A stretch of DNA of 57,977 bases, counting the filler, from Dugesia japonica (taxonomy: Eukaryota): the NCBI GenBank assembly GCA_001938525.1. It is 5 parts of 5 records of this genome, joined end to end, with 100 filler letters (N's around TTAATTAATTAA, not from the genome) between each part and the next. Parts side by side here need not be neighbours in the genome. Positions count along the whole stretch, not along the records: positions 38,742 to 49,563 come from MQRL01582905.1; 4 more parts are not named here. The stretch is one strand, 5' to 3'. Every line of letters starts with the position of its first letter. Within the stretch, counting starts at the first letter, position 1. The notes beneath the pieces are model-generated. The model ran no database searches and was not told where the DNA came from. It saw nothing but the letters and a program-made list of their open reading frames with translations. The position numbers were made by a program, and so were the translations under genes. This document shows, piece after piece, positions 9,200 through 57,791 of the stretch.

Positions 9200-10370
9200 A
9201 CGATTCCAGTATAATACTAATTAATTTTGGTTAACATAATTTTTGCTTAACATCCAATGACAAGGTATTGCAACGGTTCATGCACAATAGCTTATTTTAT
9301 CATATAATCTTATACAATGAGAAAAAATGTAGTTAACATTATTGGCGGTGGTGACAATGCTCTTGAATGTGCATTTTCTGTTGTGAAGTATACACCATTT
9401 TTAAGGTGCACGACCAGATGAACAACCATATAAAAATGTGTGCATATGGCAAATCTCTTTTTCCATTTAATAGAATACATTTAACAGCCTGTCTTTCTAA
9501 AAATATGATGCTTGACAATAAAATCTATTAAAACCCTCAATTTTGTTTGAAATCTGGCGCGGAATTATCATGAAAATTTGATGATGATTGTCTAATTAAT
9601 AAAAGTTCTTGTATTTAATCCCCCCTAAAATTGCATGTGAGGCAATAAAACAGTCTTAGCGAACATATGGCATTGTATCTTGTGTGTATTCATGCATATG
9701 CCGTGGACTCTCTGTCAATGTGGCCGGTAGTATGACCATTTTTACCAATTCATTGAGATTTAAATTCCCATCATTAACAACTGCATNNNNNNNNNNNNNN
9801 NNNNNNNNNNNNNNNNNNNNNNNNNNNNNNNNNNNNNNNNNNNNNNNNNNNNNNNNNNNNNNNNNNNNNNNNNNNNNNNNNNNNNNNNNNNNNNNNNNNN
9901 NNNNNNNNNNACATAATTTTCAGCGTTTCTACGAATCATCAATCTTTATGAATAGTAATTCATGTCACTGACTTTATTTTACGTTTCTTCATTTCTTTAT
10001 AGATTTATCATTAAATTTATAATGTTGAAATGATATTTATTTTCTCCTTGCCAAAATAGAATCGGATATTACAATCCGTCATGTTAACCATGTGTTTCTG
10101 AGACTCGCTGAACAAAACCATTTTTGCTAAAAATAATTATATCATGCGAGTTAAATTATTTGCTAATTATAACGATTGCCACTTCTTCAATTGTCGTTGC
10201 ATTGTATTGTCTTTCTTGTTGATGACATTTGTTTTGTCTTCTCTAAGTACAACTTTGTAGTCATCAGTTGGCATTTGTTCAAGGGTAGTTCTGAAAAATC
10301 AAATTAATTATTTGTGTTGATCAAATAAAGTTTGTAATGCAACGACAATTTCTTGTATAGTGCATATTAG
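9200..10370 (-). mobile_element. Helitron Rep/helicase gene fragments (decayed, internally deleted)
   Basis: Minus-strand peptides TTLEQMPTDDYKVVLREDKT...QYNATTIEEVAIVI; AVVNDGNLNLNELVKMVILPATLTESPRHMHEYTQDTMPYVR; VVHLVVHL...VYFTTENAHSRALSPPP, typical of animal Helitron RepHel. Confidence 0.88.
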
Positions 10371-10595
10371 GTATTTTTAAAAAGTGTAAAATTTTTAATG
10401 GTTTTTAAATGTAAAATTGCAAATTATAAAATTGAAATTTTAAATATTAATTTNGAAATTAGTAGTCTAAATTTTTAAAATTTATTATATGAATTTTAGA
10501 TATAAATACGTAATGTAAAACTTTTATTCAAATTTATAATTGGAAGTTTCTATAATTCAGATATAAAATTTAATTGAAAATTTGGAAAATTATTA

Positions 10596-10695
10596 NNNNN
10601 NNNNNNNNNNNNNNNNNNNNNNNNNNNNNNNNNNNNNNNTTAATTAATTAANNNNNNNNNNNNNNNNNNNNNNNNNNNNNNNNNNNNNNNNNNNN
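10596..10695. other. Artificial scaffold linker N44-TTAATTAATTAA-N44
   Basis: Exactly 100 bp with stops in all six frames; the same linker occurs four times. Confidence 0.95.
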
Positions 10696-10994
10696 CCATC
10701 GTTATTCTCCAGATATAGCCCCGCCAGATTTTCATTTATTTCGTTCCATGCAGCACAGTCTTTCGGATACACGATTCGGAAATATTGAAGAGGCACGAAA
10801 ATTCATCGACAACTTCATTCAATTCAAGAACAAAGACTTTTTTCCATAAGGGTATTCATATTTTACCTGGCAGATGGGGAAAAGTAGTGAATAACGATGG
10901 TAAATATTTTGATTGAATGTACTGTGTTATTTGTAATAATATTAATAGAAATTATTCCTCTTAAAACTATGTGAACTTATGCATAATCCTAATA
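10696..10994 (+). mobile_element. Mariner transposon 3' end (transposase C-terminus plus right TIR)
   Basis: YSPDIAPPDFHLFRSMQHSL...(frameshift)KGIHILPGRWGKVVNNDGKYFD* (stop 10914-10916), then TIR-like AAACTATGTGAACTTATGCATAATCCTAATA. Confidence 0.92.
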
Positions 10995-15285: not shown

Positions 15286-18200
15286 AGTAGGTAGATATTG
15301 GCGCACTGGATTCGACCACTCAGTAAACGTCAAATTTTTTCAATATCAGTGATCTAGTATACTCGATTCTGATTGCTGAAAACTTTCAAGGTTGAATGTT
15401 CAAGGTCAAAGTGATTTAGTATACTCGATTCAAATTGGTTGAAATAATTCAAGTTCGAATTTTCAAGGTCAGATTGATTAAGTATACTCAGTTCTGATTA
15501 GGGGAATATTTGAAGGCCGAATGAATGTAGGCCAAGGTCATTTCCATGACAATCTTTATTAGGTTAATGTTAACTATCATCCGAACAGTATAAATATTAA
15601 AATTCTCCGGGCAGACTAAATATTAAAATGTTCTAGACAGGTTTAATATTTTTTGTTTTATTGTAATTTTTTAAAAAAAATTTTTTTCCAAGGTCATTAA
15701 AAGTCGTTCAAATCAAGAGTAACACTATCGGATATAAAATTAAAAAGTAACATAGGAATGTGTAATGAACTTGCCTAAATGGCTCCTACGTAAAATGGTT
15801 ACTTCCTGTCGAAAAATGTAAACAAAGGAATTTTTTTTTGAACATGATATTGCACCGAATTTTACATCTTTCGACGCAAAATTACACGACAAACAAATTG
15901 GTGTATGACAAAATGTCCAGCAATGTAATCATAAAAAGTTATAAAATAAGAACTTATTGATTCAGTGTTTTGAAATTGTATAGATGTCTATGTAATGTTT
16001 CAAAAAACTGCATGTATATCCATGTAATATTTTCAAACTTAACATTAATCTCTATGTAATATTTTCAAAAATAACATATATGTCACTAAACGCTTAAAAA
16101 ATCCTATGTAAAATATAGGGGAAATAACGCAAATATTGCATAGAAGTCAATAAAAGTTTACATAAATTGCATAAATGTCTATGTAATATTTTCAAACATA
16201 ACATAGATGTCTATGTTATATTCTCAAAAATAGTATATATTTCTATGTAATATTTTTAAACATAACATAGATGTATCGGTAACTTTCACAAAAATAATAT
16301 AGATGCCAATAGAGTCTAACAAAAACTCAATAGAGCTTCGTACACAGTAAACTAATAGATATTATATACGCAATAAACCATATAAAGTCACTGGATTCAT
16401 ACATTAAACCCAATATGGTTTTATACTTAACACATTAAGATCTACAAAGTCATATAATACACACAATTAACACAATAAAATGATATAATACACACAATAC
16501 ACCCTATTATACAAACAATACACTAAATAATGTCATAAATTACATCTAATAATGACATATAATACATATAACTAACCCATTAAAATCACATAAATACATA
16601 CAATACTTCCAATAATGTCATATAATATACACAATAAACTTTATAAAATTATATAATGCATACACAATATACTTTATATATTCACATAATACATACAATA
16701 TACACTATAATACCCACAATATATGAAATAATGTCATATAATACGCATAATACACGAAATAATATCAATTGAATCCAATAATGTCATATAATACATAGAT
16801 TTAACCAAATAAAATCATTTAAATGCACACAATATACTCTATAGTCATATAATACATACAAAAAACCTAATAATTTCATATAATACACTTATACATATTA
16901 ATCCATGTGTGCAACATAAATACATGTTAAGCAATGAAAATGTAAGATAAACAAAGGACTGATATAAACTTAACAACGTATTAGTAATGGATTTATATAA
17001 TATTATATACGATATGGTTGAACATATATTTTCATCGGTTCAAGGTAATAATAATAACTATTATTAATCTAAAAAGATTTTTTAATAGTTGATGATTTTC
17101 AAGGAAATGATGTAGAAATAATTGAAATAGATGCATCAACAGAGNNNNNNNNNNNNNNNNNNNNNNNNNNNNNNNNNNNNNNNNNNNNNNNNNNNNNNNN
17201 NNNNNNNNNNNNNNNNNNNNNNNNNNNNNNNNNNNNNNNNNNNNNNNNNNNNNNNNNNNNNNNNNNNNGATGATATTTCTGATGAAGTAATGCCTGATAG
17301 AAGTAAAAATAAGGATATGATTGGTGAGGAAATGACTGATTCACGGACCGATGAGGAAATAAATGATAAAGAAATTACTGATATTGATTGAATTTTCAAG
17401 TGTCTAATAAAGAACAAGTGTATTTTAAATAAACTTTTCATATAATGGTTTTTTATATGTTATCTTACATAGATATTTCAATTGTATTATAATAGATGAC
17501 GTTAAAATATTTCAAAAATTACATAAAATTTTTGATAAATTACATAGAGGTTTTTAAACCATTGATTTTACATAGAGGTTGGTGAAATATTTTATAAATT
17601 ACATAGAAGTCATTACAATTTTCAAAAATTACATGAAAGTCGGTGAAATTTTATAAAAATTACTTAGTCTATGAAAATATAACAAAGTATTTGTATATGT
17701 GTTCATTTTTATTAAATATGATATTAAATATGACGAATGCAATATATTAACATTTTTAAAATTTTCCATAATCTTTTTTAAAAAAAATTATCTATTTACA
17801 ATTTGTCAGTAATTAATTTATTCATTAAAGTTAGCTTTTAATTCTTTACCAAATTGTACGAGAAAATATTTAAAAAAATTCAAAATGGTGGCTTTTATCT
17901 ACTTTTAAATGTTTCTTTGTTAAATAACTTTTTATGATTACATTGCTAGACCTTTTGTCATACACCAATTTGTTCGTCGTGTAATTTTGCATCGAAAGAT
18001 GTAAAGTTCGGCGCAATATCATGTTTTTACTTGACTTTGTTCACAAAAAACAAAATTCCTTTGTTTACATTTTTCGACAGGAAGGAACCATTTTACGATG
18101 CACGTTCATTACATATTCCTATGTTACTTTTTAATTCTCTATCCGATAGTGTTACTCTTGATTTGAACGACCTTTAATAACCTTGGAAAAAAAACTTTAA

Positions 18201-18554
18201 AAAAAAAATAAAACAAAAAATATTAAACCTGTCTAGAACGTTTAACATTTAGTCTGCTGGGAGAATTTTTATACTAAGTCTGCTCGGAGAATTTTAATAT
18301 TTGTTCTGCATGGATGATAGTTAACATTGACCTAATAAAGATTGAAAATTCGACCTTGAATTATTTCAGCCAATCAGAATCGAGTATGCAATATCCCTGA
18401 CCTTGAAAATTTGATCTTGAATTATTTTAACCAATCAGAATCGAGTATTCTAGTTCACGGACCAACCAAAATGCAGAATATTAGATAGCTGACCTTGAAA
18501 AAATTTGACCTTGACGAGTGGGGGTTAGATCCAGTGCGCCAGTATCTACCTACT
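15286..18554. mobile_element. Non-autonomous long-TIR DNA element (Polinton/Maverick-like termini)
   Basis: Ends AGTAGGTAGATATTGGCGCACTGGAT...ATCCAGTGCGCCAGTATCTACCTACT; ~15286-15945 is the inverted counterpart of ~17920-18554; ATTAAT on both sides; interior of AC-rich and ACATAGA-type subrepeats. Confidence 0.85.
16987..17391 (+). CDS. Putative two-exon small acidic protein inside the long-TIR element (partly in gap)
   Basis: Exon 16987-17044 MDLYNIIYDMVEHIFSSVQ, 44-nt GT..AG intron 17045-17088, then VDDFQGNDVEIIEIDASTE-[gap]-DDISDEVMPD...EITDID*; AATAAA just downstream. Confidence 0.5.
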
Positions 18555-21187: not shown

Positions 21188-23920
21188 AGTAAACAGATAG
21201 TGACGCATGGCACCATTACCCTTCTCTTCCGTCTCCCTAATGCCCAAAATACTGGTGCCGAAATATACTGATATAAACTTTGATCTGATGCTGAAATTTG
21301 TATATAGAAATTCATGCGCGGGAGTTTAAACTTTAATACTGACTTTCCTCGGTAAGCGGTATTGTACAGGTATCATAGTATCGTTGGATGCATAATCTTG
21401 CAGCGGATCTCATGGTTCAATCCTGAGTTCGGAATTCCCACTAAAAATGGCGCTAAAAGTACATTTTGATTTTATGAATCAAAGTCTATTTAAATTAATA
21501 TTTTCTGTTCCAACTTAATATTTATGGATGCGCAATTAGATGACAAACACAATGACGTTGTTTTATGTTTAGTCCAATGTAAGGGTAAAAAGTCAAAAAA
21601 GATTTAAAATTTAAAATGTTTTTGAAATCAGTCTCTATCAAAATCTTTCCATAACACTCATCAAGGTTTTGAGACCATTTGATAAAGAAATAAAAGTAAA
21701 ATATTTCTCACTTAAAAACTTTTAAATACAAATATTTTCCTAATGGTGTTATCGTTAAAACCAAAATTTTGGCTCCGTGGTGAGCGGTTTCAATCATTTG
21801 ACTTGAAACCACAATCAATAAAATGAAAATAGAAAACAATCTATACAATGTCTAAAGGACTTATGGTTACAAATGTTTCCTTCAAAGCGAAAACTTATGG
21901 ACAGGAGAATAAATAAATACTGGCGCATTGTCTCTTCTGAAATACATCACTTTTAAAATTACTCTTAAAACCTTTGGATATGTGCTATGATCACAAACTT
22001 GGTATCGTTAAACATGTCAAAGCTTGAGAAACATAACTGCATACAAACAAATTAATAAAATCATATAATGTACACAATAAACATAATAAAGCCATTAAAA
22101 ACATATAATAAACCAAAAACATACAGTTAAATACACATAATAAACCTAATAAGTCAGTTAAATACACTTACAATGAACCATACACACACTAAACCAAATA
22201 GATACATATAATGCATACAGTAAACTTAATAAGCACACCAAGTACACACAAATATCCCCTATAGAGCCATTAAAATACATACACAATAATACACACACAA
22301 TAACTCAATAAAGTTATTAGATACACAAAATAAACCTTATAGAGTCTTATACACAGTAAACCAATTGGTTTTATCCACACACTATAAAGCTCATAGAGTT
22401 ATATAATACACAAAGTAAGCCCAATAAGGTCTTATAATATACAGAATAAATTGTAAAGTGTCATTAAATACACACTTATGTTAAACCCTTTAGAGTATAA
22501 ATGCATAGATGTTGGTAAAATATTTCAAAAATTACATAGAAGTCAATACAATTCTTTATAAATTACATTGAAGTCACCGAAAAATTTCAAAAATTGCATA
22601 GAAGTCCCCAAACATTTTCAAATTCATATGTAAACCATTGGGATAAAATTACAAAAGTTACTTAGAAGTCACCCAAAATTAAAACAAATTACACAGAAGT
22701 CTATGAAAATTTAACAAAATAATCTAGCATGTTTGTGTCTTCATTTTTATAAATTATGATTAAATATTACATGTGTTACATAAATACAACATAAATGCAT
22801 TTAAATTTTTCATAATCCTTTTAAAATAAAATTTATCTATTTACAATTTGTAAGTAGATAATTTATTAATTTTTATTCAAATTTACAATTTAAATGGCAA
22901 ATATTTAGCTACCTATTCGTCAAACTGTTTTGAATACATAACAAATTTATTTGTCATTTCATTACAATTCTAATGATATTACGTTTAATGCATTTTCATA
23001 AAGAAATGGTACCAAAAATTCATTTAAAAAATATTTTTAAAAAGACCTTTGTTCTTTCTTGTATGGTTTTCCCGTAAGACATACATTTTCGATACCATTT
23101 TTTTAAACAATGTATAGGTAGTTTTTAATTGCTTACCAGATAGTATAAAATTCAAGTCTTGATGATAAAAGTTTAAGGCAGTTTTTAAACTTTAAAACTT
23201 TATATATTTAATTACTCAACAAAAGAACGTCTGATTAAAATTCTGAGATAAAAGTTATGGTCCTCAAGCTTTTACAAAATTGACACCATAGCATGCATAT
23301 AATAATTTTAATTGTACTTTTAAAAGCGCTGAATTTAAGTAGTGACATACTGACAAGTCTCACTACTTTCATGTTCATAATTTTTTGATATGATGGAAGC
23401 ATTTTTCATCATAAGTCCTTTAAGTAATGTATTAAATAGATGATTTTCGATTTTGATTCCGATGATAAAGGTTTCAACTCAAAAATTAGAACCGCGCACC
23501 GTAGAGCCAAACATTTTGTTTTATCAATATCTCCGTTAACGAAAACATTTTTATTTAAAAATCTCTAAGTGAGATATATTCTTCTTTTCTCTATCAAATG
23601 TTGTCAAAATGTTGATGGGTGTTATGGCAAAGATTTCATCTATATTGATTTTTAAAATCTTTTAAAGTTTTAAATCTTTAACAACATTTTACCCTTACAT
23701 CCGACTAAAATTACAACAACTCCATTATATTCATCATTTTATTAAGCATCCGACAATATCAAGTCTAAACGAAAAATATGAATTTAAGTGGACTTTGACC
23801 CATAAAATCGATAAGTACCTTTAGCCGCCATTTTGAAAGAAAAGATCAATTTACATAAATTTTGTATGGATGTGTTCTTATTGTACGTTTTAACTTCATT
23901 GGTGACGGGGGTATGGTACA
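21188..23920. mobile_element. Second, more diverged long-TIR element of the same group
   Basis: Starts AGTAAACAGATAGTGACGCA; ~21440-21800 is inverted relative to ~23480-23835; interior 22500-22870 is homologous to 17500-17830; right terminus lost. Confidence 0.7.
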
Positions 23921-46980: not shown

Positions 46981-48180
46981 GTCGATAAATTTTTAGCAAA
47001 TGGAGAGCGGACGAAAGAAAAACTCATATCAAAAATGCTAATAACTTGTGCAAAGAGTGAAAAACCAGAGGAGATTATCATGCAAAAATTGGAGAAAGTA
47101 GAAGATATAAAAGAAACGTTATCATTAGTTGAAAAAATAGAAAGAAGAGAACCTGTTAATATAGTAAAGAGTTACGCTGGTGTAACACGCGGAGAAGGTT
47201 TTGGAGAAAGGAGACAAAATATTTAGAGAGTAACAAAAGAACAGAACCACATTATGGGCATACAAAAAGAGAGTGTCCAAAAAAGTATCATGTGGAAAAG
47301 GGCATTTAAGTAGAAATTGTCCAGACAAGAAACCACCAAAATGTTTTGGGTGTGGTAAGATTTGTTATATCAGAAAGATTTTGACAGAAATTGTATGTGG
47401 GAGATGTAGAAAAACGGGTCGCAGAGCAGAAGAAAGCTTTTCGAGCATTAATAAACCTAGACTAGAAGAGTGAAGATACAATTTTAAAAGCAGACAAAAA
47501 ACGAAACATTAGAGTCAGACAAAACCAATTCATGCCTTTTGAGAAGAATTTGATGATGAGAATGAAAAGAGGTTCTCTGAGAGCATAATATAAAATGAAG
47601 ATCCAAGAAGAGAACACCCAAAAGGCAGGGCTCCATCAGTAGAGCAGTTGGTTGGAGACATTCATTACACGAGATACCGTTTGAATATACTCAAGAGGCC
47701 GAGAAATGGAATGAGACGAGTAAAGTGGGAGAAAAGGTTTACAGATTCCTAAAAAGAGAAAGTTTCAATGATGCGGAAGTTAACAAAGCAGAAGTGATAG
47801 GAATAATTGAAGAGAAACAGAATGCAGAAATTTCGTATGATAAAAGGCAAGGGAGACCTAGAATTTCAGTGATGATCAAGGGTGAACAGTTTGATTGTTT
47901 GTTAGATACAGGAGCAAGAATNNNNNNNNNNNNNNNNNNNNNNNNNNNNNNNNNNNNNNNNNNNNNNNNNNAGTTTGATTGTTTGTTAGATACAGGAGCA
48001 AGAATAAATGTGATGAGCATGAAAGGATTTAATAGACTCGGAGAAGAAATGCTAGAGAAAAGCGAGAAACTATTGTATTGCGCAAATAACAGCTCATTGG
48101 AGACAATTGGAAAGATACGTATTGAAGTTGTAGTCTCAAAGGTGTGCAAGGAAGTAACATTCATAATTTGTAATGAATGA
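46978..48180 (+). mobile_element. Gypsy-like LTR retrotransposon gag-protease remnant
   Basis: Three decayed zinc knuckles (CGKGHLSRNC, CFGCGK, CGRCRKTG) and retropepsin CLLDTGARINVM...CANNSSLETIG. Confidence 0.88.
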
Positions 48181-48481
48181 TAATCAGAATAATAATCACA
48201 ATAGTCATATTATATTCATTGGATTGTTGCTGGCTGATTTGATTCTTTGGGTTTGAATTGATTACTCGAATATTGGTTTGAATGTTTGATCATTGCATAT
48301 ATTTTTATGTGTATGTTGTGAATGGGTGCTTGTTTATTAAGGTTCGTTCGTATCATTTGTATTTTCCCCAACATAAAAAACCACAACGTAATATATTAAT
48401 CATTTGAAAATTAAATCTAAATATAAATTGATATTTTTTGTACTTGAATTGTGCTTGTTTTGAAACCGTGTTTCGAATTTT

Positions 48482-48959
48482 CTAAATTGTTTCAATCAAA
48501 CTGAATAAATCTGAAGTAATTTTATTCAGATATCCTTGAAAATTCAGATTTTTAAGCGCTAGTATTACTAGTTTTCCTGTTGATAACATATTTACACATA
48601 AAGGGTCATATTTTAGAAGTCTTAGAGCAGGAAATAACTCTGGCTCGAACCAAAAGTTGACTATTCTTGCTACTTCATACAAATTTATTGAAACTCCAAT
48701 ATTTACGACAATTTTTAGTGATTGTAATTGTAAAGTTTTTATATCACAGGGGTTCAAATCATGCGGTTTCAATGGTTTCTTTCAAACCCATTATTCTGGA
48801 TTTTCCAGATCGGAAGAAAATAATTGTATATTGGTCACTTTTGACTTTAAATTGGCATGGCTTGCCTATAGGAAATCTCATTTTCTTTGTTACTTCTTGT
48901 GACACTTCACCTCTGTAATTAATATTGGTAATCATAATTAATGAATTAAAGAGAAACAT
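48482..48959 (-). pseudogene. Intronless TATA-binding-protein-like gene with a single frameshift
   Basis: Two overlapping ORFs join into ~150 aa with both TBP repeats: MITNINYRG...TIIFFRSGKSRIMG / LQSL...INLYEVA...FEPELFPALRL...PLCVNMLSTGKLVILA (cf. TBP IFSSGKMVCTG and YEPELFPGL...IFVSGKVVLTG). Confidence 0.8.
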
Positions 48960-49030
48960 TGGGGTTTAGATGGAGTTAATTTAATTGATTCATTTAAACA
49001 AATATAAACAATGTATTAAACTATGAATAA

Positions 49031-49470
49031 ATTAAAGAAAAAAAATTAAGAAATGATGCAGTCTATCAAATTTTTGGATCTATTCGTAGTAAGAAAACTT
49101 TGTTTGTATGTCAATTATTGAAATCAAATTTATCCAAGTCGAAACTAAAAAACATATACTGGAATAGGGGTGCATATGAGGAGTTTGGTTTGTCTAAATC
49201 TGAATTTTGTAATATTAAAATGAAAATTATAAATGGTTTTCAATCTAATTGGAGCAAAAGATTAGGACCAGATGATGTTATTGTTATTGATGATATGTAT
49301 CATGAGGCAAATAAAGAAAATGATTTCAATAATTTATTCATAAAGATATCAGGGCATCGTAATGTGACTGTGATAGTCATAAAACTCGAAATTTAAACGT
49401 ACATTATTTGGTTCTATTCAAAAATCCTAGAGATCAGACTGTTGTTGATTTTCTCGCAAGAAAATTGTAG
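49031..49470 (+). mobile_element. Polinton/Maverick A32-like genome-packaging ATPase (decayed)
   Basis: Degenerate Walker A GSIRSKKTLFV; Walker B VIVIDDM; LFIKISGHRNVTVI; after a deletion/frameshift, NLNVHYLVLFKNPRDQTVVDFLAR, the Polinton ATPase HHRN...N.HY.VLFKNPRD signature. Confidence 0.85.
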
Positions 49471-49563
49471 TTGGTTCAGTTACTGATAATGTTAAAAAAC
49501 GGAAAACACCGGTTATGAAGAAAAAGACGAAAATGTCGTATAAGAAAAATCTCATAAGAAGCA

Positions 49564-53209: not shown

Positions 53210-55960
53210 GACTTAACTAGAGAGAATTCAGATGGTTTTCTATTCGTCTTGACGGGATTGGCGTGCAAGTTCTGCATCAAGGAGGGAGAGAACCAATAGA
53301 TCCGCTGCTGCCAACCTTTGGGAGTTCGCTAATTTTCTGTCCGACCGATCGATTATATAATAATATTTGTACCTCTCAAAAAGCTGTGGAGCAATTAATA
53401 GGGTAACAAATCAACGAATAAGTACACCGGACATCCGAACGGTTTCGCCTATACTGAATTTGTGATGCCGCATTCGGTTCTGCTTCTCGACGAAAGTGAG
53501 TTTAGAAGTCGTCAGATAAAAGTGATGCCTAAGCGGACAAATTTGTCAGGTTATTCGACAAGTAATTGAAGGAATTGACGTGATAAGTTCTGCATCAGGT
53601 AGTGGATAGCTAATAGATCCGCTGTTGCCAACCTTTGGGAGTTCACCGACCAGTAAAACACTAGTTTTCAATCAGACAGACCGATGATATAATAATATTT
53701 GTTACTATCGTCGAACCTCTCAAAAGTGATCGTTTTATAGGAGTTTGGTCACTTGTTTGATGTTACGCTAAACTCACTAAAAACAGGAGCAACTTAACTA
53801 GAGAAAATTTGTATTCGTCTTCATTAAATTGACATAACAAGTTCTGCTTTAGTGGGGAGGAAGAGCCATTGATATCGAATATTTCAGCTGCTGCCAACCT
53901 TTGGGACTTCACTAACCTGTAAAATACTAATTTTCAATCCGACTGACCAATGATATTTGTCGATAATTATTTGTCACTACAGTGGAACCTCTCAAAAAGG
54001 CTGTGGAGCAATTAATAGAATAACAATTTTAACGAATAAATACATCTGAAAGGTTTCGCCTATATTGAATTTGCGTTGCCGGATTCTGTTAATACTGCAA
54101 TGCTTCTCGATGAAAGTGTGTTTAGAAGTCCTCAGATAAACGTGATGCGTAAGCGGACAAATTTGTCAGGTTATTCGACAACTAATTGATGGAATTGACG
54201 TGACAAGTTCTACTTCAGANNNNNNNNNNNNNNNNNNNCACTGTTGCAAACCTTTCAGGCCTTCACAGACCAGTAAAATACTAATTTTCAATCCGACCGA
54301 CTAATAATATAATAATATTTCTCGATAATTTGTCGCTACAGCCGAACCTCTCCAAAATGCTGTTGAGCAATTAATATGATAACAATTTTAACGAATAAGT
54401 ACGCCGGACATCTGAAAGGTTTCGCCTATATTGAATTTGTGTTGCCGGATTCTGTTAATACTGCTATGCTTCTCGACGAAAGTGAGTTTAGAAGTCGTCA
54501 GATAAAAGTGTCAGGTTATTCGACAACTAATTGATGGAATTGACGTGACAAGTTCTACTTCAGATTGGGAGGAGCGATAGACCCACTGTTGCAAACCTTT
54601 CAGGCCTTCACAGACCAGTAAAATCATAATTTTCAATCCGACAGACCAATGATATAATAATATTTGTCGATAATTTGTCACTACGATTTAATATCTCAAA
54701 AGTAACAATTTTTATCGGAGGTCACTTTTTTGATGTTACGCTAAACTCACTAAAAACAGGAGCAACTTAACTAGAGNNNNNNNNNNNNNNNNNNNNNNNN
54801 NNNNNNNNNNNNNNNNNNNNNNNNNNAAATTTGTATTCGTCTTGATTAAATTGACATAACCAGTTCTGCATCAAAGGGGAGAAAGAGCGATTGATATCGA
54901 ATATTTCAGCCGCTGACACCTTTGGGACTTCACTAACCAGTAAAATAATAATTTTCAACCCGACCGACCAATGATATAATAATATTTCTCGATAATTTGT
55001 CGCTACAGTCGAACCTCTCAAAAATGCTGTGGAGCAATTAATAGGATAACAATTTTAACGAATAAGTACACCGGACATCTGAAAGGTTTCGCCTATATTG
55101 AATTTGCGTTGCCGGATTCTGTTAATACTGCAATGTTTCTCGATGAAAGTGTGTTTAGAAGTCCTCAGATAAACGTGATACCTAAGCGGACAAATTTGTC
55201 AGGTTATTCGACAACTAATTGATGGAATTGACGTGACAAGTTCTACTTCAGAGTGGGAGGGGCGATAGACCCACTGTTGCAAACCTTTCAGGCCTTCACA
55301 GACCAGTAAAATACTAATTTTCAATCCNACTGACCAATTATATAATAATTTTTGTCGATAATTATTTGTCACTACAGTGGAACCTCTAAAAAGTGACCGT
55401 TTTTATTGGAGGTGATCACTTTTTTGATGTTACGCTAAAATCATTAAAACAAGAGCAACGTAACTAGAGAAAATTTGTATTCGTCTTGACTGAATTGACA
55501 TAACAAGTTCTGGATCAGGGGGAGCCAATAGACTCGGTGTTTGGGACTTCAAATTAACAGGGCTATTCCAACAAAATCACGAAATCGATTTTTAATACAA
55601 TTTAATATACACAGCACTGGTAATAGCACTTCATCTTTGGGACTTCACTGACCAGTAAAATTATAATTTTCTATCCAACAGACCAATGATAAAATAATAT
55701 TTGATAATTATCGTTTTTATCGGAGGTCACTTGTTTGATGTTATGCTAAAATCACTAAAAACAGAAGAACTTAACTAGAGAAAATTTGTATTAGTCTTGA
55801 CTAAATTAACATGACAAATTCTGCATCAAGGGGGAGGTGATGCCATTGATATCGAATATTCCAGCTGCCGCCAACCTTTGGGAATTCACCGACCATTAAA
55901 ATACTAATTTTCAATCCGACAGACCAATGATATAATAATATTTGTCGATAATTTGTCAGT
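53210..55960 (+). pseudogene. PABPN1: Degenerate tandem array carrying four copies of the nuclear poly(A)-binding protein RRM
   Basis: Copies at ~53382-53569, 53999-54189, 54358-54534 and 55025-55222; best copy [64 protein letters not shown] vs PABPN1 [26 protein letters not shown]...[26 protein letters not shown]. Confidence 0.9.
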
Positions 55961-56968
55961 TATTCATTTATTTAAAGAACCCGAAATTCTGGAATCTTTC
56001 CAGAATTATCCAATGAAAAGTACAGCCGAGCGCCAGTTTTTGTAGAGAATATAACGGATTTTTCAACAAATAAATCGATTGGGTCAAAAGGATTCAAATA
56101 TGCCATTTTTTACCGAAAGTTTCTTGCGGTCCATCAGATTGGAATAGAACGCTCATTCAACATTATCTTTACCGTATTTACATGCATAGATCGTGCAAGA
56201 TTTATTTTGTTGATGGCTTTNTTTTTTCTGTGGTGAATAATTTAAATTATTCTTATTCTGGAAGTTTTCACTAAAATAATTAAAAACAGCATCAACTTTT
56301 GGAACAAAAATTGAAATTAAAACCACTAAAAAGCTTAAGAATGAGACTGGTCGAAAAGAATTTCTAGGGACAAAAAACCATTGCGTTCATAAGAGTTCAT
56401 GTTGTATAATCTGTTTTGTACTTATTTTCTATTTCCAAAAAATAGTTGCACTTTTCGAGTTTTCTAAATAATAAGAGTATAGAGAGGGTATCACTTCATT
56501 TCACGCTAAACGGTCTAGGCGAAGCTTTCGAAAGAATTGATAATTCTAACTTAAACACTTAAATAATTTTTAAAAGAAGTAAACATGTGATAAATTACTA
56601 ATTATAGTAACATAATTTGATTGGATTATTAGATTTCATCCGATATCTAGACTATTTTTTCTCCTTTATTGTAAAATTATTCAGTTCTATTTGTTTTTAG
56701 CAAGAGTACATATTATTTGGATTTAATTTCGAATGATCGAAGTCTATGAATTATGAAATTGTAATACTAGGAAAGAAAATTAAAAGCCTATGGTGTTACC
56801 TTGGTGTTTTTTTCTAAATTATTATAACTAATAGACTTATTTGTTTAAAATAAGATTTTTTTGGTACTTTATTTTAAGCAATCGCAATAAGAATCTACAA
56901 AATCTTTTCTCTCCGTCATTTACTGTTTATCGCTTTGGTTTTATAAATTAAATTTGTTTATGTAAAAT

Positions 56969-57003: not shown

Positions 57004-57488
57004 TGGCAACCGTTCAACACACATCTGATTTATGGTGTAATGGCAACTGTGAGTAATTAATTATTCTTTATGCAATTTGTACACATCAACTTTGTTATGT
57101 GTGCGTGTGTGCNNNNNNNNNNNNNNNNNNNNNNNNNNNNNNNNNNNNNNNNNNNNNNNNNNTAAACAAAATTATTAATTTAATTAATAATTATTAATTT
57201 AGAAGTTTGGAATAAAGATAAAATTAATTTCACTATTTCTTTTTGTGATTTAATTTTTTTATAATTTCAATTATAAATTTTAGAAAATACCTAGTTTTAA
57301 ATAATTGTTTTTGGTTGGTCTAGGACAAAAAGTNNNNNNNNNNNNNNNNNNNNNATATTTTTATGACTTGGGTAAAATATAATGTTTAGAGAGAATTTAT
57401 ATTTTCATTAAATTACAGAGTAAAACTTCATTTGTTGGATATTTATTAAATCATTAACTGCACCTAAATTATGAACTAATGCCTTAAA

Positions 57489-57791
57489 TAGACTCTCACT
57501 TGCTAAATAGTGTAATTATTTTAACTCGTAAATAATCACTTCTTAAAAGAGTAAAAAAACGTCTAGCTAAATGAAAAAGAGTAATAACAGGTCTGTGTTG
57601 CCCTTAGACGCTCGGGCCCGCACACGTGCTACAATGGCAGTTCCAACGAGTATACCTTACTAGAAATAGTTGGACAAACTTGTGAAATACTGTAGTAACA
57701 GGGATCGTGAATTGTAATTATTTCACATGAATGGGGAATTCCTAGTAAGTGCAAGTCACCAGCTTGCGCTGATTACGTCCCTGCCTTTTGT
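57489..57791 (+). rRNA. 18S: Truncated eukaryotic 18S rRNA fragment (pseudogene; 3' major domain region)
   Basis: TAATAACAGGTCTGTGTTGCCCTTAGA...GCTACAATG...GGAATTCCTAGTAAGTGCAAGTCACCAGCTTGCGCTGATTACGTCCCTGCCTTTTGT; stops just before the universal ACACACCGCCCGTC; has substitutions in conserved motifs. Confidence 0.92.

Follow-up and report, generated by a model that had tools for sequence, protein, structure and literature searches.

We find that a lineage of Polinton/Maverick elements carries a gene for a compact TBP-like protein of about 150 residues and, judging from the protein and from the promoters around it, this protein is likely a one-protein early-to-late switch that would operate on host Pol II; binding, recruitment and timing are what we infer here, and the labels 'early' and 'late' are taken from gene function. 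The starting point is a dead copy in what we refer to as the window, that is, the whole stretch of Dugesia japonica DNA that was analyzed (57,977 nucleotides, filler included), an AT-rich eukaryotic sequence that is rich in simple repeats and gaps. Together the TBP-like gene and the adjacent ATPase gene of the window form a dead 1.1-kb leftover of a high-copy Polinton; the copy itself is non-functional and serves as a pointer to a family that is very abundant in the organism. The features of the remnant, in coordinates of the window, are

48346..49465, no strand assigned: very high-copy Polinton/Maverick remnant (TBP gene, spacer and 5' three quarters of the ATPase), delimited by contig depth
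48482..48781, minus strand: C-terminal lobe of the TBP-like pseudogene, including the EPELF stirrup (Pfam TBP E 4.6e-4, below the curated cut-off; 56.6% identity to P0001 residues 52-149)
48768..48935, minus strand: TBP-like pseudogene, N-terminal lobe (Pfam TBP E 0.051, likewise below the curated cut-off; 62.5% identity to P0001 residues 1-56)
48780..48786, minus strand: frameshift breaking the TBP-like gene, placed by the frame change in tblastn
48936..49042, no strand assigned: divergent spacer of 107 nt from the TBP-like gene to the ATPase, from sequence
48940..48944, minus strand: Initiator-like TCATT directly upstream of the TBP start, from sequence
49003..49010, plus strand: TATAAACA box, ∼40 nt ahead of where the ATPase alignment begins and a candidate late promoter for that gene
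49043..49381, plus strand: A32-type packaging ATPase pseudogene, first piece (Atlas Pox_A32 clusters; 57% identity to residues 2-115 of the L001 ATPase)
49375..49464, plus strand: ATPase second piece, with VLFKNPRD, in another frame (83% identity to residues 126-154 of the L001 ATPase)

The N-terminal half of the TBP-like gene lies in a minus-strand ORF of 68 aa (48759-48965, ATG at 48935) that contains FFRSGKSRIMG, and the C-terminal half in an ORF of 99 aa (48482-48781) that contains both FEPELFPAL and STGKLVIL and that matches solved TBPs in the PDB with a best E of 3.8e-9. A first-pass annotation of this DNA had proposed that the two ORFs fuse into one compact TBP-like protein, and this is borne out by P0001, an intact natural relative of 149 aa, whose residues 1-56 and 52-149 align to the two ORFs in two frames with E 1e-48 (tblastn), so that there is a single TBP gene, frameshifted near 48780-48786. 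In the window copy Phe and Gly positions that are invariant in the family have decayed as well, and inspection of the sequence ahead of its TBP start revealed no canonical TATA box. The ATPase is likewise dead: the start codon is missing, the Walker A motif, intact in natural relatives, is degenerate, a frameshift occurs near 49380 with ∼10 codons gone, and the sequence extends only to residue ∼155 of ∼210. The ESM Atlas assigns it to Pox_A32 clusters with a score of 0.97, the family being present in 35% of members. Its first aligned codon, at 49043 on the plus strand, is 107 nt from the TBP start, in keeping with the earlier description of an oppositely oriented ATPase within ∼100 bp that carries the VLFKNPRD motif, and the spacer is bridged from gene to gene by the record 7 contig of run X1 (48866-49077). 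A tblastn search of the window for further Polinton genes, beyond the two of the remnant, came up empty.

The abundance of the remnant is evident from sequencing runs. At ≥80% likeness the stretch 47975-49560, which also takes in a separate retrotransposon remnant, is matched by about 10,300-10,900 contigs per run in three DNA runs of organism A and by 539 contigs in one run of organism B. Summed contig depth, which is not the same as copy number, amounts to 1e4-4e5 over 48346 to about 49460 in three runs and falls to about 80-270 at 48187-48345 and to <120 beyond 49512; a drop of at least 100-fold on either side indicates that the 1.1-kb remnant is an internal piece of a repeat family present in very high copy. 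The neighboring repeat, at 47000-48167, is a decayed gag-protease remnant of an LTR retrotransposon (aspartyl protease matches, E 0.002-0.007) and is high-copy in its own right. RNA reads matching the stretch number 37, 1050, 100 and 135 in four RNA runs from three studies, and since none is 99% alike to the window copy the low-level RNA over both genes appears to come from sibling copies; among such reads crossing the 48780-48786 frameshift in run X14, 11 of 20 are free of it. We place little weight on this RNA, which may be read-through or DNA carry-over, given the many copies.

That intact siblings might exist had been anticipated, and they do. With the C-terminal window piece as query six intact proteins of 144-155 aa were obtained, and a profile built from these gave 2263 matches, the best 120 of which are all family-like (E ≤1.1e-44); on a library clustered at 50% the profile gave 285 matches at 1e-10 and 47 at 1e-30, with canonical TBPs included in the lower ranks. 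Intact relatives of 145-160 aa are thus common. Their TBP genes are under purifying selection, with a median dN/dS of 0.17 (56 pairs, 43 genes) compared with 0.08 for the ATPase, many of the gene pairs being near saturation.

The fold of the family was established by modeling of P0001. The AF2 model has a pLDDT of 96, a Foldseek search with it returned a best E of 6.5e-9, with all listed rows to E 1e-3 being TBP entries, and comparison with TBP (VIA) aligned 148 of 149 residues with a Z of 13.1 and an rmsd of 2.8, so the predicted two-lobed TBP saddle, and with it the TBP fold that had been ascribed to the protein, is confirmed at the level of a model of this natural relative. The further claim that both halves of the saddle are present holds in that there are two lobes, but the first of them is incomplete in intact relatives too: the P0001 model lacks helix H2, and the corresponding segment has 19 aa as against 33 aa. 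According to the accessible text of PMC7221094 H2 bears a basic patch bound by TFIIA, TAF1, Mot1 and Brf1.

Saddle positions were compared over 115 sequences in yeast numbering, using the DNA-contact list in Table 1 of PMC12529657 mapped via plant TBP. N69, F116, F190 and F207 are kept at 98-100% and P191 at 90%. In the N-lobe V71 has become N (97%), the F99 column P (99%), V122 R (99%) and T124 M (100%), and in the C-lobe N159 has become S (98%), V161 T (89%) and L205 N (100%). Three of the four intercalating Phe are therefore kept (98-100%) and F99 is lost; the register of the F99 column is possibly off by one, and the flanking columns are without Phe. The two glutamates that contact TFIIB, a role described for these C-lobe residues in the part of PMC7221094 on TBP interactions, are retained in 96% and 100% of the 115 sequences. 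The fixation of new residues on the DNA face speaks for DNA binding under selection, with an altered preference, and retention of the TFIIB-contact glutamates points to a role in transcription. Cellular TBP (PF00352; yeast 1ytb, human 1cdw, archaeal 1mp9) shares with the family the saddle, F116/F190/F207, N69, P191 and the EPELF stirrup, whereas identity is only about 20% and the family has a reduced H1, no H2 and no F99, is fixed for other residues at seven saddle positions and forms its own clade. The strong divergence remarked on at first pass is thus real, but it reflects remodeling of the whole family and not decay alone; the compact protein adopts the TBP fold yet lacks several of the features by which canonical TBP is defined.

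A quick ML tree of 98 rows, hand-subsampled (36 compact, 30 full-grade, animal TBP/TRF rows absent) and with long branches that limit the trust to be placed in it, puts the family and the window piece on one side of a branch (67 rows) with SH-aLRT 99 and a stem of 0.9. A near-canonical TBP clade of 10 eukaryotic and 8 viral rows (support 95) stands apart from the family, and none of the TBP rows of plant, algal or other protist type group with it, again with a long stem; the expectation that the protein would not group within the host TBP clade is upheld for the eukaryotic rows sampled. The compact clade (support 99) is nested within a grade of fuller length. Rows P0334-P0423 (about 30) form a divergent grade of 150-190 aa in which H1 and most of H2 are kept while the saddle changes to R, M, N and P are already present, and it is inside this grade that the compact clade nests. 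The series from a near-canonical TBP (carried by the Polinton contig L098, see below) through full-fold divergent forms to the compact one shows how a highly conserved protein can be re-specified. These data also bear on the simplest account of the window, in which the gene is a one-off decayed retrocopy of host TBP lying beside an unrelated ATPase fragment. The window copy is indeed intronless and broken, as a retrocopy would be, yet at least 120 intact relatives at E <1.2e-44, a family clade apart from the eukaryotic TBP rows, purifying selection, a Polinton context and about 10,000 contigs per run on the stretch all speak against such an origin, which is largely refuted and to which we attach hardly any probability.

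The Polinton context derives from a metagenome scan that gave 59 loci of the TBP-like family. Three of these (L057-L059) were dropped as chance, each with a 36-aa match at E 5e-4, GC 0.52 and no Polinton gene, and the remaining 56 were kept for all counts. A Polinton core gene is found at 22 of the 56 loci and at 9 of the 11 that exceed 4 kb, and an A32 ATPase at 15 of the 56. Relatives contain an rve integrase with chromodomain (E 1e-12, 8 loci), a Peptidase_C5 protease (E 1.1e-7) and a double jelly-roll capsid protein whose model matches mavirus, Sputnik and iridovirus capsids (E 3e-13), none of which is present in the window. The loci L012 and L097 contain ORFs of 1073-1089 aa for which Pfam DNA_pol_B_2 and PDB searches gave no match and which, from exonuclease and polymerase motifs recognized by eye, we take to be polymerase-like. 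An independent element, L097, is near-complete and has the same Polinton gene set. The proposal of a Polinton lineage carrying its own TBP is supported. The head-to-head arrangement of TBP and ATPase, by contrast, is real in the window but not general: of the 15 loci that hold both genes 13 have them on the same strand and 2 have them divergent with genes in between, and direct head-to-head order occurs in 0 of these 15 distant loci, which makes it local to the lineage of the window. Long terminal inverted repeats were found in none of the four longest contigs tested, all apparently incomplete, and the window has an internal fragment only.

Scans of IMG/VR by TBP alignment, ATPase and capsid yielded no relatives, and a phage match from the motif scan (L096) was set aside as chance. 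ATPase, capsid and motif scans did not turn up a TBP-less element of the same Polinton lineage; no member of the TFIIB family was found among 57 neighboring ORFs scanned; and 28 long matches include no family member extended by fusion, which is weak evidence. Alongside TBP the elements carry accessory genes, among them those for a ubiquitin-conjugating enzyme, a RING finger, an LRR protein and C2H2 zinc fingers (coordinates L006:225-719, L043:1710-2168, L024:1918-3327 and L052:1513-1908).

In order to compare promoters, module genes (virion, packaging and integrase) were grouped by function, dereplicated at 85% identity and searched from -110 to -8. This function-defined grouping replaced a post-hoc one (26/31 vs 8/78), and the motif had already been seen in the same loci. 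Of 51 module genes 45 have a [TCG]ATAAAC box in this interval, as against 2 of 33 TBP genes; because the loci share ancestry Fisher values for the box overstate its significance, and the counts are not independent events. By gene, the box is found for ATPase in 11/11 cases, capsid in 7/7, pX-like in 6/6, integrase in 6/7, PZ-like in 6/7, PX-like in 6/8 and protease in 3/5, where the labels PX, PZ and pX are presumptive. ATAAACA occurs ahead of module genes 40 times in the sense and 0 times in the antisense orientation, with 2.1 expected, and in 10 of 11 ATPase genes of relatives the ATAAAC core lies 31-36 nt before the ATG. The C of the box is present in 45/45 aligned sites, by construction of the search, and two protease genes have T instead. 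The upstream regions of the 33 TBP genes are of a different kind, with a canonical TATA in 15, an Initiator-like TCATT in 18 (shuffle mean 3.5) and CCAAT in 12; shuffle means for the three are 3.5-3.8 and all three counts lie above every one of 1000 shuffles, whereas module genes show only background levels of these motifs.

Two trivial readings of the box were rejected. As a poly(A) signal it would be expected to carry A before ATAAAC, which is so in 1 of 48 sites; AATAAA itself is at background (11 vs 12.1 expected), and in the window there is no sense gene upstream of the box. A codon effect is at odds with the finding that 11/11 ATPase and 7/7 integrase sites are non-coding and that the coding sites use more than one frame. 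In several loci (L005:2536, L012:4740, L043:3468 and L049) the interval from the TATAAAC box to the start of the integrase contains a short ORF that begins with Met-Gly.

The pairing of box and protein can be followed across whole contigs. Over 7 kb of L097, TATAAAC occurs 9 times in the sense and 0 times in the antisense orientation, with 1.4 expected. L098 is a Polinton of another lineage (DNA_pol_B_2 match, rve-type integrase, protease and capsid) that encodes, at L098:11568-12122 on the minus strand, a full-length near-canonical TBP in which all four Phe, both Asn, V122 and T124 are kept, and here TATAAAC occurs once in the sense and once in the antisense orientation, with 1.2 expected. 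L100, an incomplete Polinton fragment with a Pfam DNA_pol_B_2 match, has 0 sense and 1 antisense TATAAAC; no TBP gene was seen in L100:3400-7921. These two contigs of another lineage, L100 being incomplete, are the only controls, so the link between box and protein is confounded with ancestry. In L100:3400-7921 the canonical TATAAAAG occurs 5 times in the sense and 0 times in the antisense orientation (0.6 expected), some occurrences being perhaps codon-driven. L097, L098 and L100 had all been placed inside bacterial MAGs and are most likely mis-binned eukaryotic DNA.

To our knowledge Polintons encode no RNA polymerase. In the early-to-late switch that we favor host TFIID would transcribe the TBP gene of the element from its promoter of TATA/Inr/CCAAT type. 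The protein so made would bind the TATAAAC(A/G) box that lies about 31-37 nt upstream of the virion, packaging and integrase genes. The non-canonical 3' half of this box would probably be read by the altered first lobe of the protein, whose retained EPEL stirrup would then recruit host TFIIB and Pol II, while the loss of H2 would let the compact protein escape regulators that grip this helix. We lean, by a little, toward describing the Polinton TBP as a sigma-factor-like specificity switch for Pol II that combines a private TATAAAC box, direct contact with TFIIB and a shed H2 in a virion-producing cycle controlled by a single gene. Of the two functions offered at first pass, driving the element's own promoters thus gains correlative support from the matched TATAAAC box, and competition with TFIID becomes the weaker rival. 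Several observations count against the switch: DNA bending could be weaker with one of the four intercalating Phe gone, and the box is missing from 6 of 51 module genes and present before some accessory genes (3/4 of one family, 3/18 of another and 6/8 exonuclease-like genes). Against the host-type early promoter step stands the fact that 18 of 33 TBP genes are without a canonical TATA.

It is also conceivable, if rather improbable, that host factors (TBP/TRF or forkhead) read TATAAAC while the TBP of the element acts as a decoy, sequestering TFIIB or blocking host promoters. ATAAACA matches the forkhead consensus RYAAAYA, and the most conserved surface of the protein, the TFIIB stirrup, would suit a TFIIB sponge equally. 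The AdMLP C(-25) variant in PDB entry 1qn3 is, we assume, a box with C at position 7. Wild-type TBP was crystallized on this variant, according to the title of 1qn3, showing a tolerance of TATA variants by which host TBP may suffice for the TATAAAC box; a literature search for a structure with a C-variant TATA found nothing. However, other forkhead variants are not enriched (GTAAACA 0/51, ATAAATA 5 vs 4 expected) and ATAAACG occurs 7 times; a strict orientation (40 vs 0) and spacing fixed at the TATA position likewise count against this reading, and a pure decoy needs no invariant new residues across the DNA-facing saddle.

A different use of DNA binding, in which the element's TBP contacts its own DNA (terminal repeats, origins or its own promoter) for replication, packaging or self-repression and does not activate virion genes, seems to us quite unlikely. 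It draws on a gene family that adjoins TBP in many loci, with clusters of 21, 7 and 7 loci (L012:1788-2135, L024:1296-1865 and L041:273-1013), two alignments of which are homologous (hhalign probability 94.7), and which we presume might be a single-strand DNA-binding protein. That family has no Pfam or PDB match on which such an assignment could rest, and neither retention of the TFIIB-contact glutamates nor a non-canonical box at the promoter position of virion genes is in keeping with a role confined to replication or repression. Very doubtful, finally, is the idea that the protein stands in for TBP in general and boosts every AT-rich promoter of the element with no new specificity: N69 and three of the four Phe are kept, L098 illustrates that a near-canonical TBP can be carried too, and loss of H2 removes the patch that, in the accessible text of PMC7221094, binds Mot1/BTAF1, TAF1 and TFIIA, but the fixed polar substitutions and the invariant C of the box are left unexplained.

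Virus-encoded TBP folds that work with host Pol II have a precedent in the herpesvirus TBP mimics KSHV ORF24, EBV BcRF1 and HCMV UL87, described in the accessible text of PMC12529657, and these too have a matched non-canonical box, TATTWAA, before structural genes; the likeness of the Polinton box is a correlation only. As in the compact Polinton TBP, V122, T124, V161 and L205 are turned polar in KSHV ORF24. ORF24, however, has 752 aa, includes domains for Pol II binding and for additional DNA binding and needs five partner proteins, in contrast to a single domain of ∼150 aa; it keeps four Phe and lacks the TFIIB glutamates, whereas the Polinton protein loses one Phe and H2 and keeps the glutamates (ORF24 from PMC12529657). 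By analogy the compact Polinton TBP appears to resemble the herpesvirus mimics in working mode but is not one of them. Giant-virus TBP-like proteins serve the viral RNA polymerase, whereas no viral RNA polymerase was seen with the Polinton TBP. In giant viruses the eukaryotic regulator patch of the N-lobe is likewise not conserved (PMC7221094, in the portion accessible, and BFVD matches), but their TBPs diverge at the TFIIB contacts and are often paired with a viral TFIIB, according to the same portion, unlike the Polinton TBP, which keeps the contacts. If correct, the proposal would describe a very small viral transcription switch that seemingly keeps a host TFIIB contact lost by other viral TBPs.

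In the literature searched, with figures and most supplements outside its reach, the only earlier trace of the family or its promoter is a 'TBP' label in the legend to Fig. 5 of Starrett et al. 2021 (PMC8502044), on the map of a MELD virus with an adintovirus-like polymerase; this is a legend label only, in a section on non-animal datasets whose text leaves the gene undiscussed and gives no promoter analysis, and the legend does not allow one to decide whether the same family is meant. The pPolB2 Polintons (10.1101/2023.08.22.554363), from the accessible text, share the rve integrase, A32 ATPase, C5 protease and jelly-roll capsid; the words TATA, TFIID, transcription and promoter do not occur in that text. 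The ∼1080-aa pPolB-like ORF has an endonuclease VII/HNH-type match, as in the HNH-containing pPolB2 Polintons of that text, a likeness drawn without a tree. Whether Polintons are true viruses with a regulated lytic program is debated, and a TBP with a matching box offers a concrete, testable mechanism, with TATAAAC a possible sequence marker for late genes.

Elsewhere in the window, a degenerate fragment of eukaryotic SSU rRNA lies at 57460-57784 on the plus strand (96 bits), and 53300-56000 is an array of about 8 diverged units spaced by 240-370 nt. Long imperfect inverted arms at 15550-18344 and 21443-23834 surround minisatellites of 31-32 nt and are perhaps non-autonomous DNA transposons.
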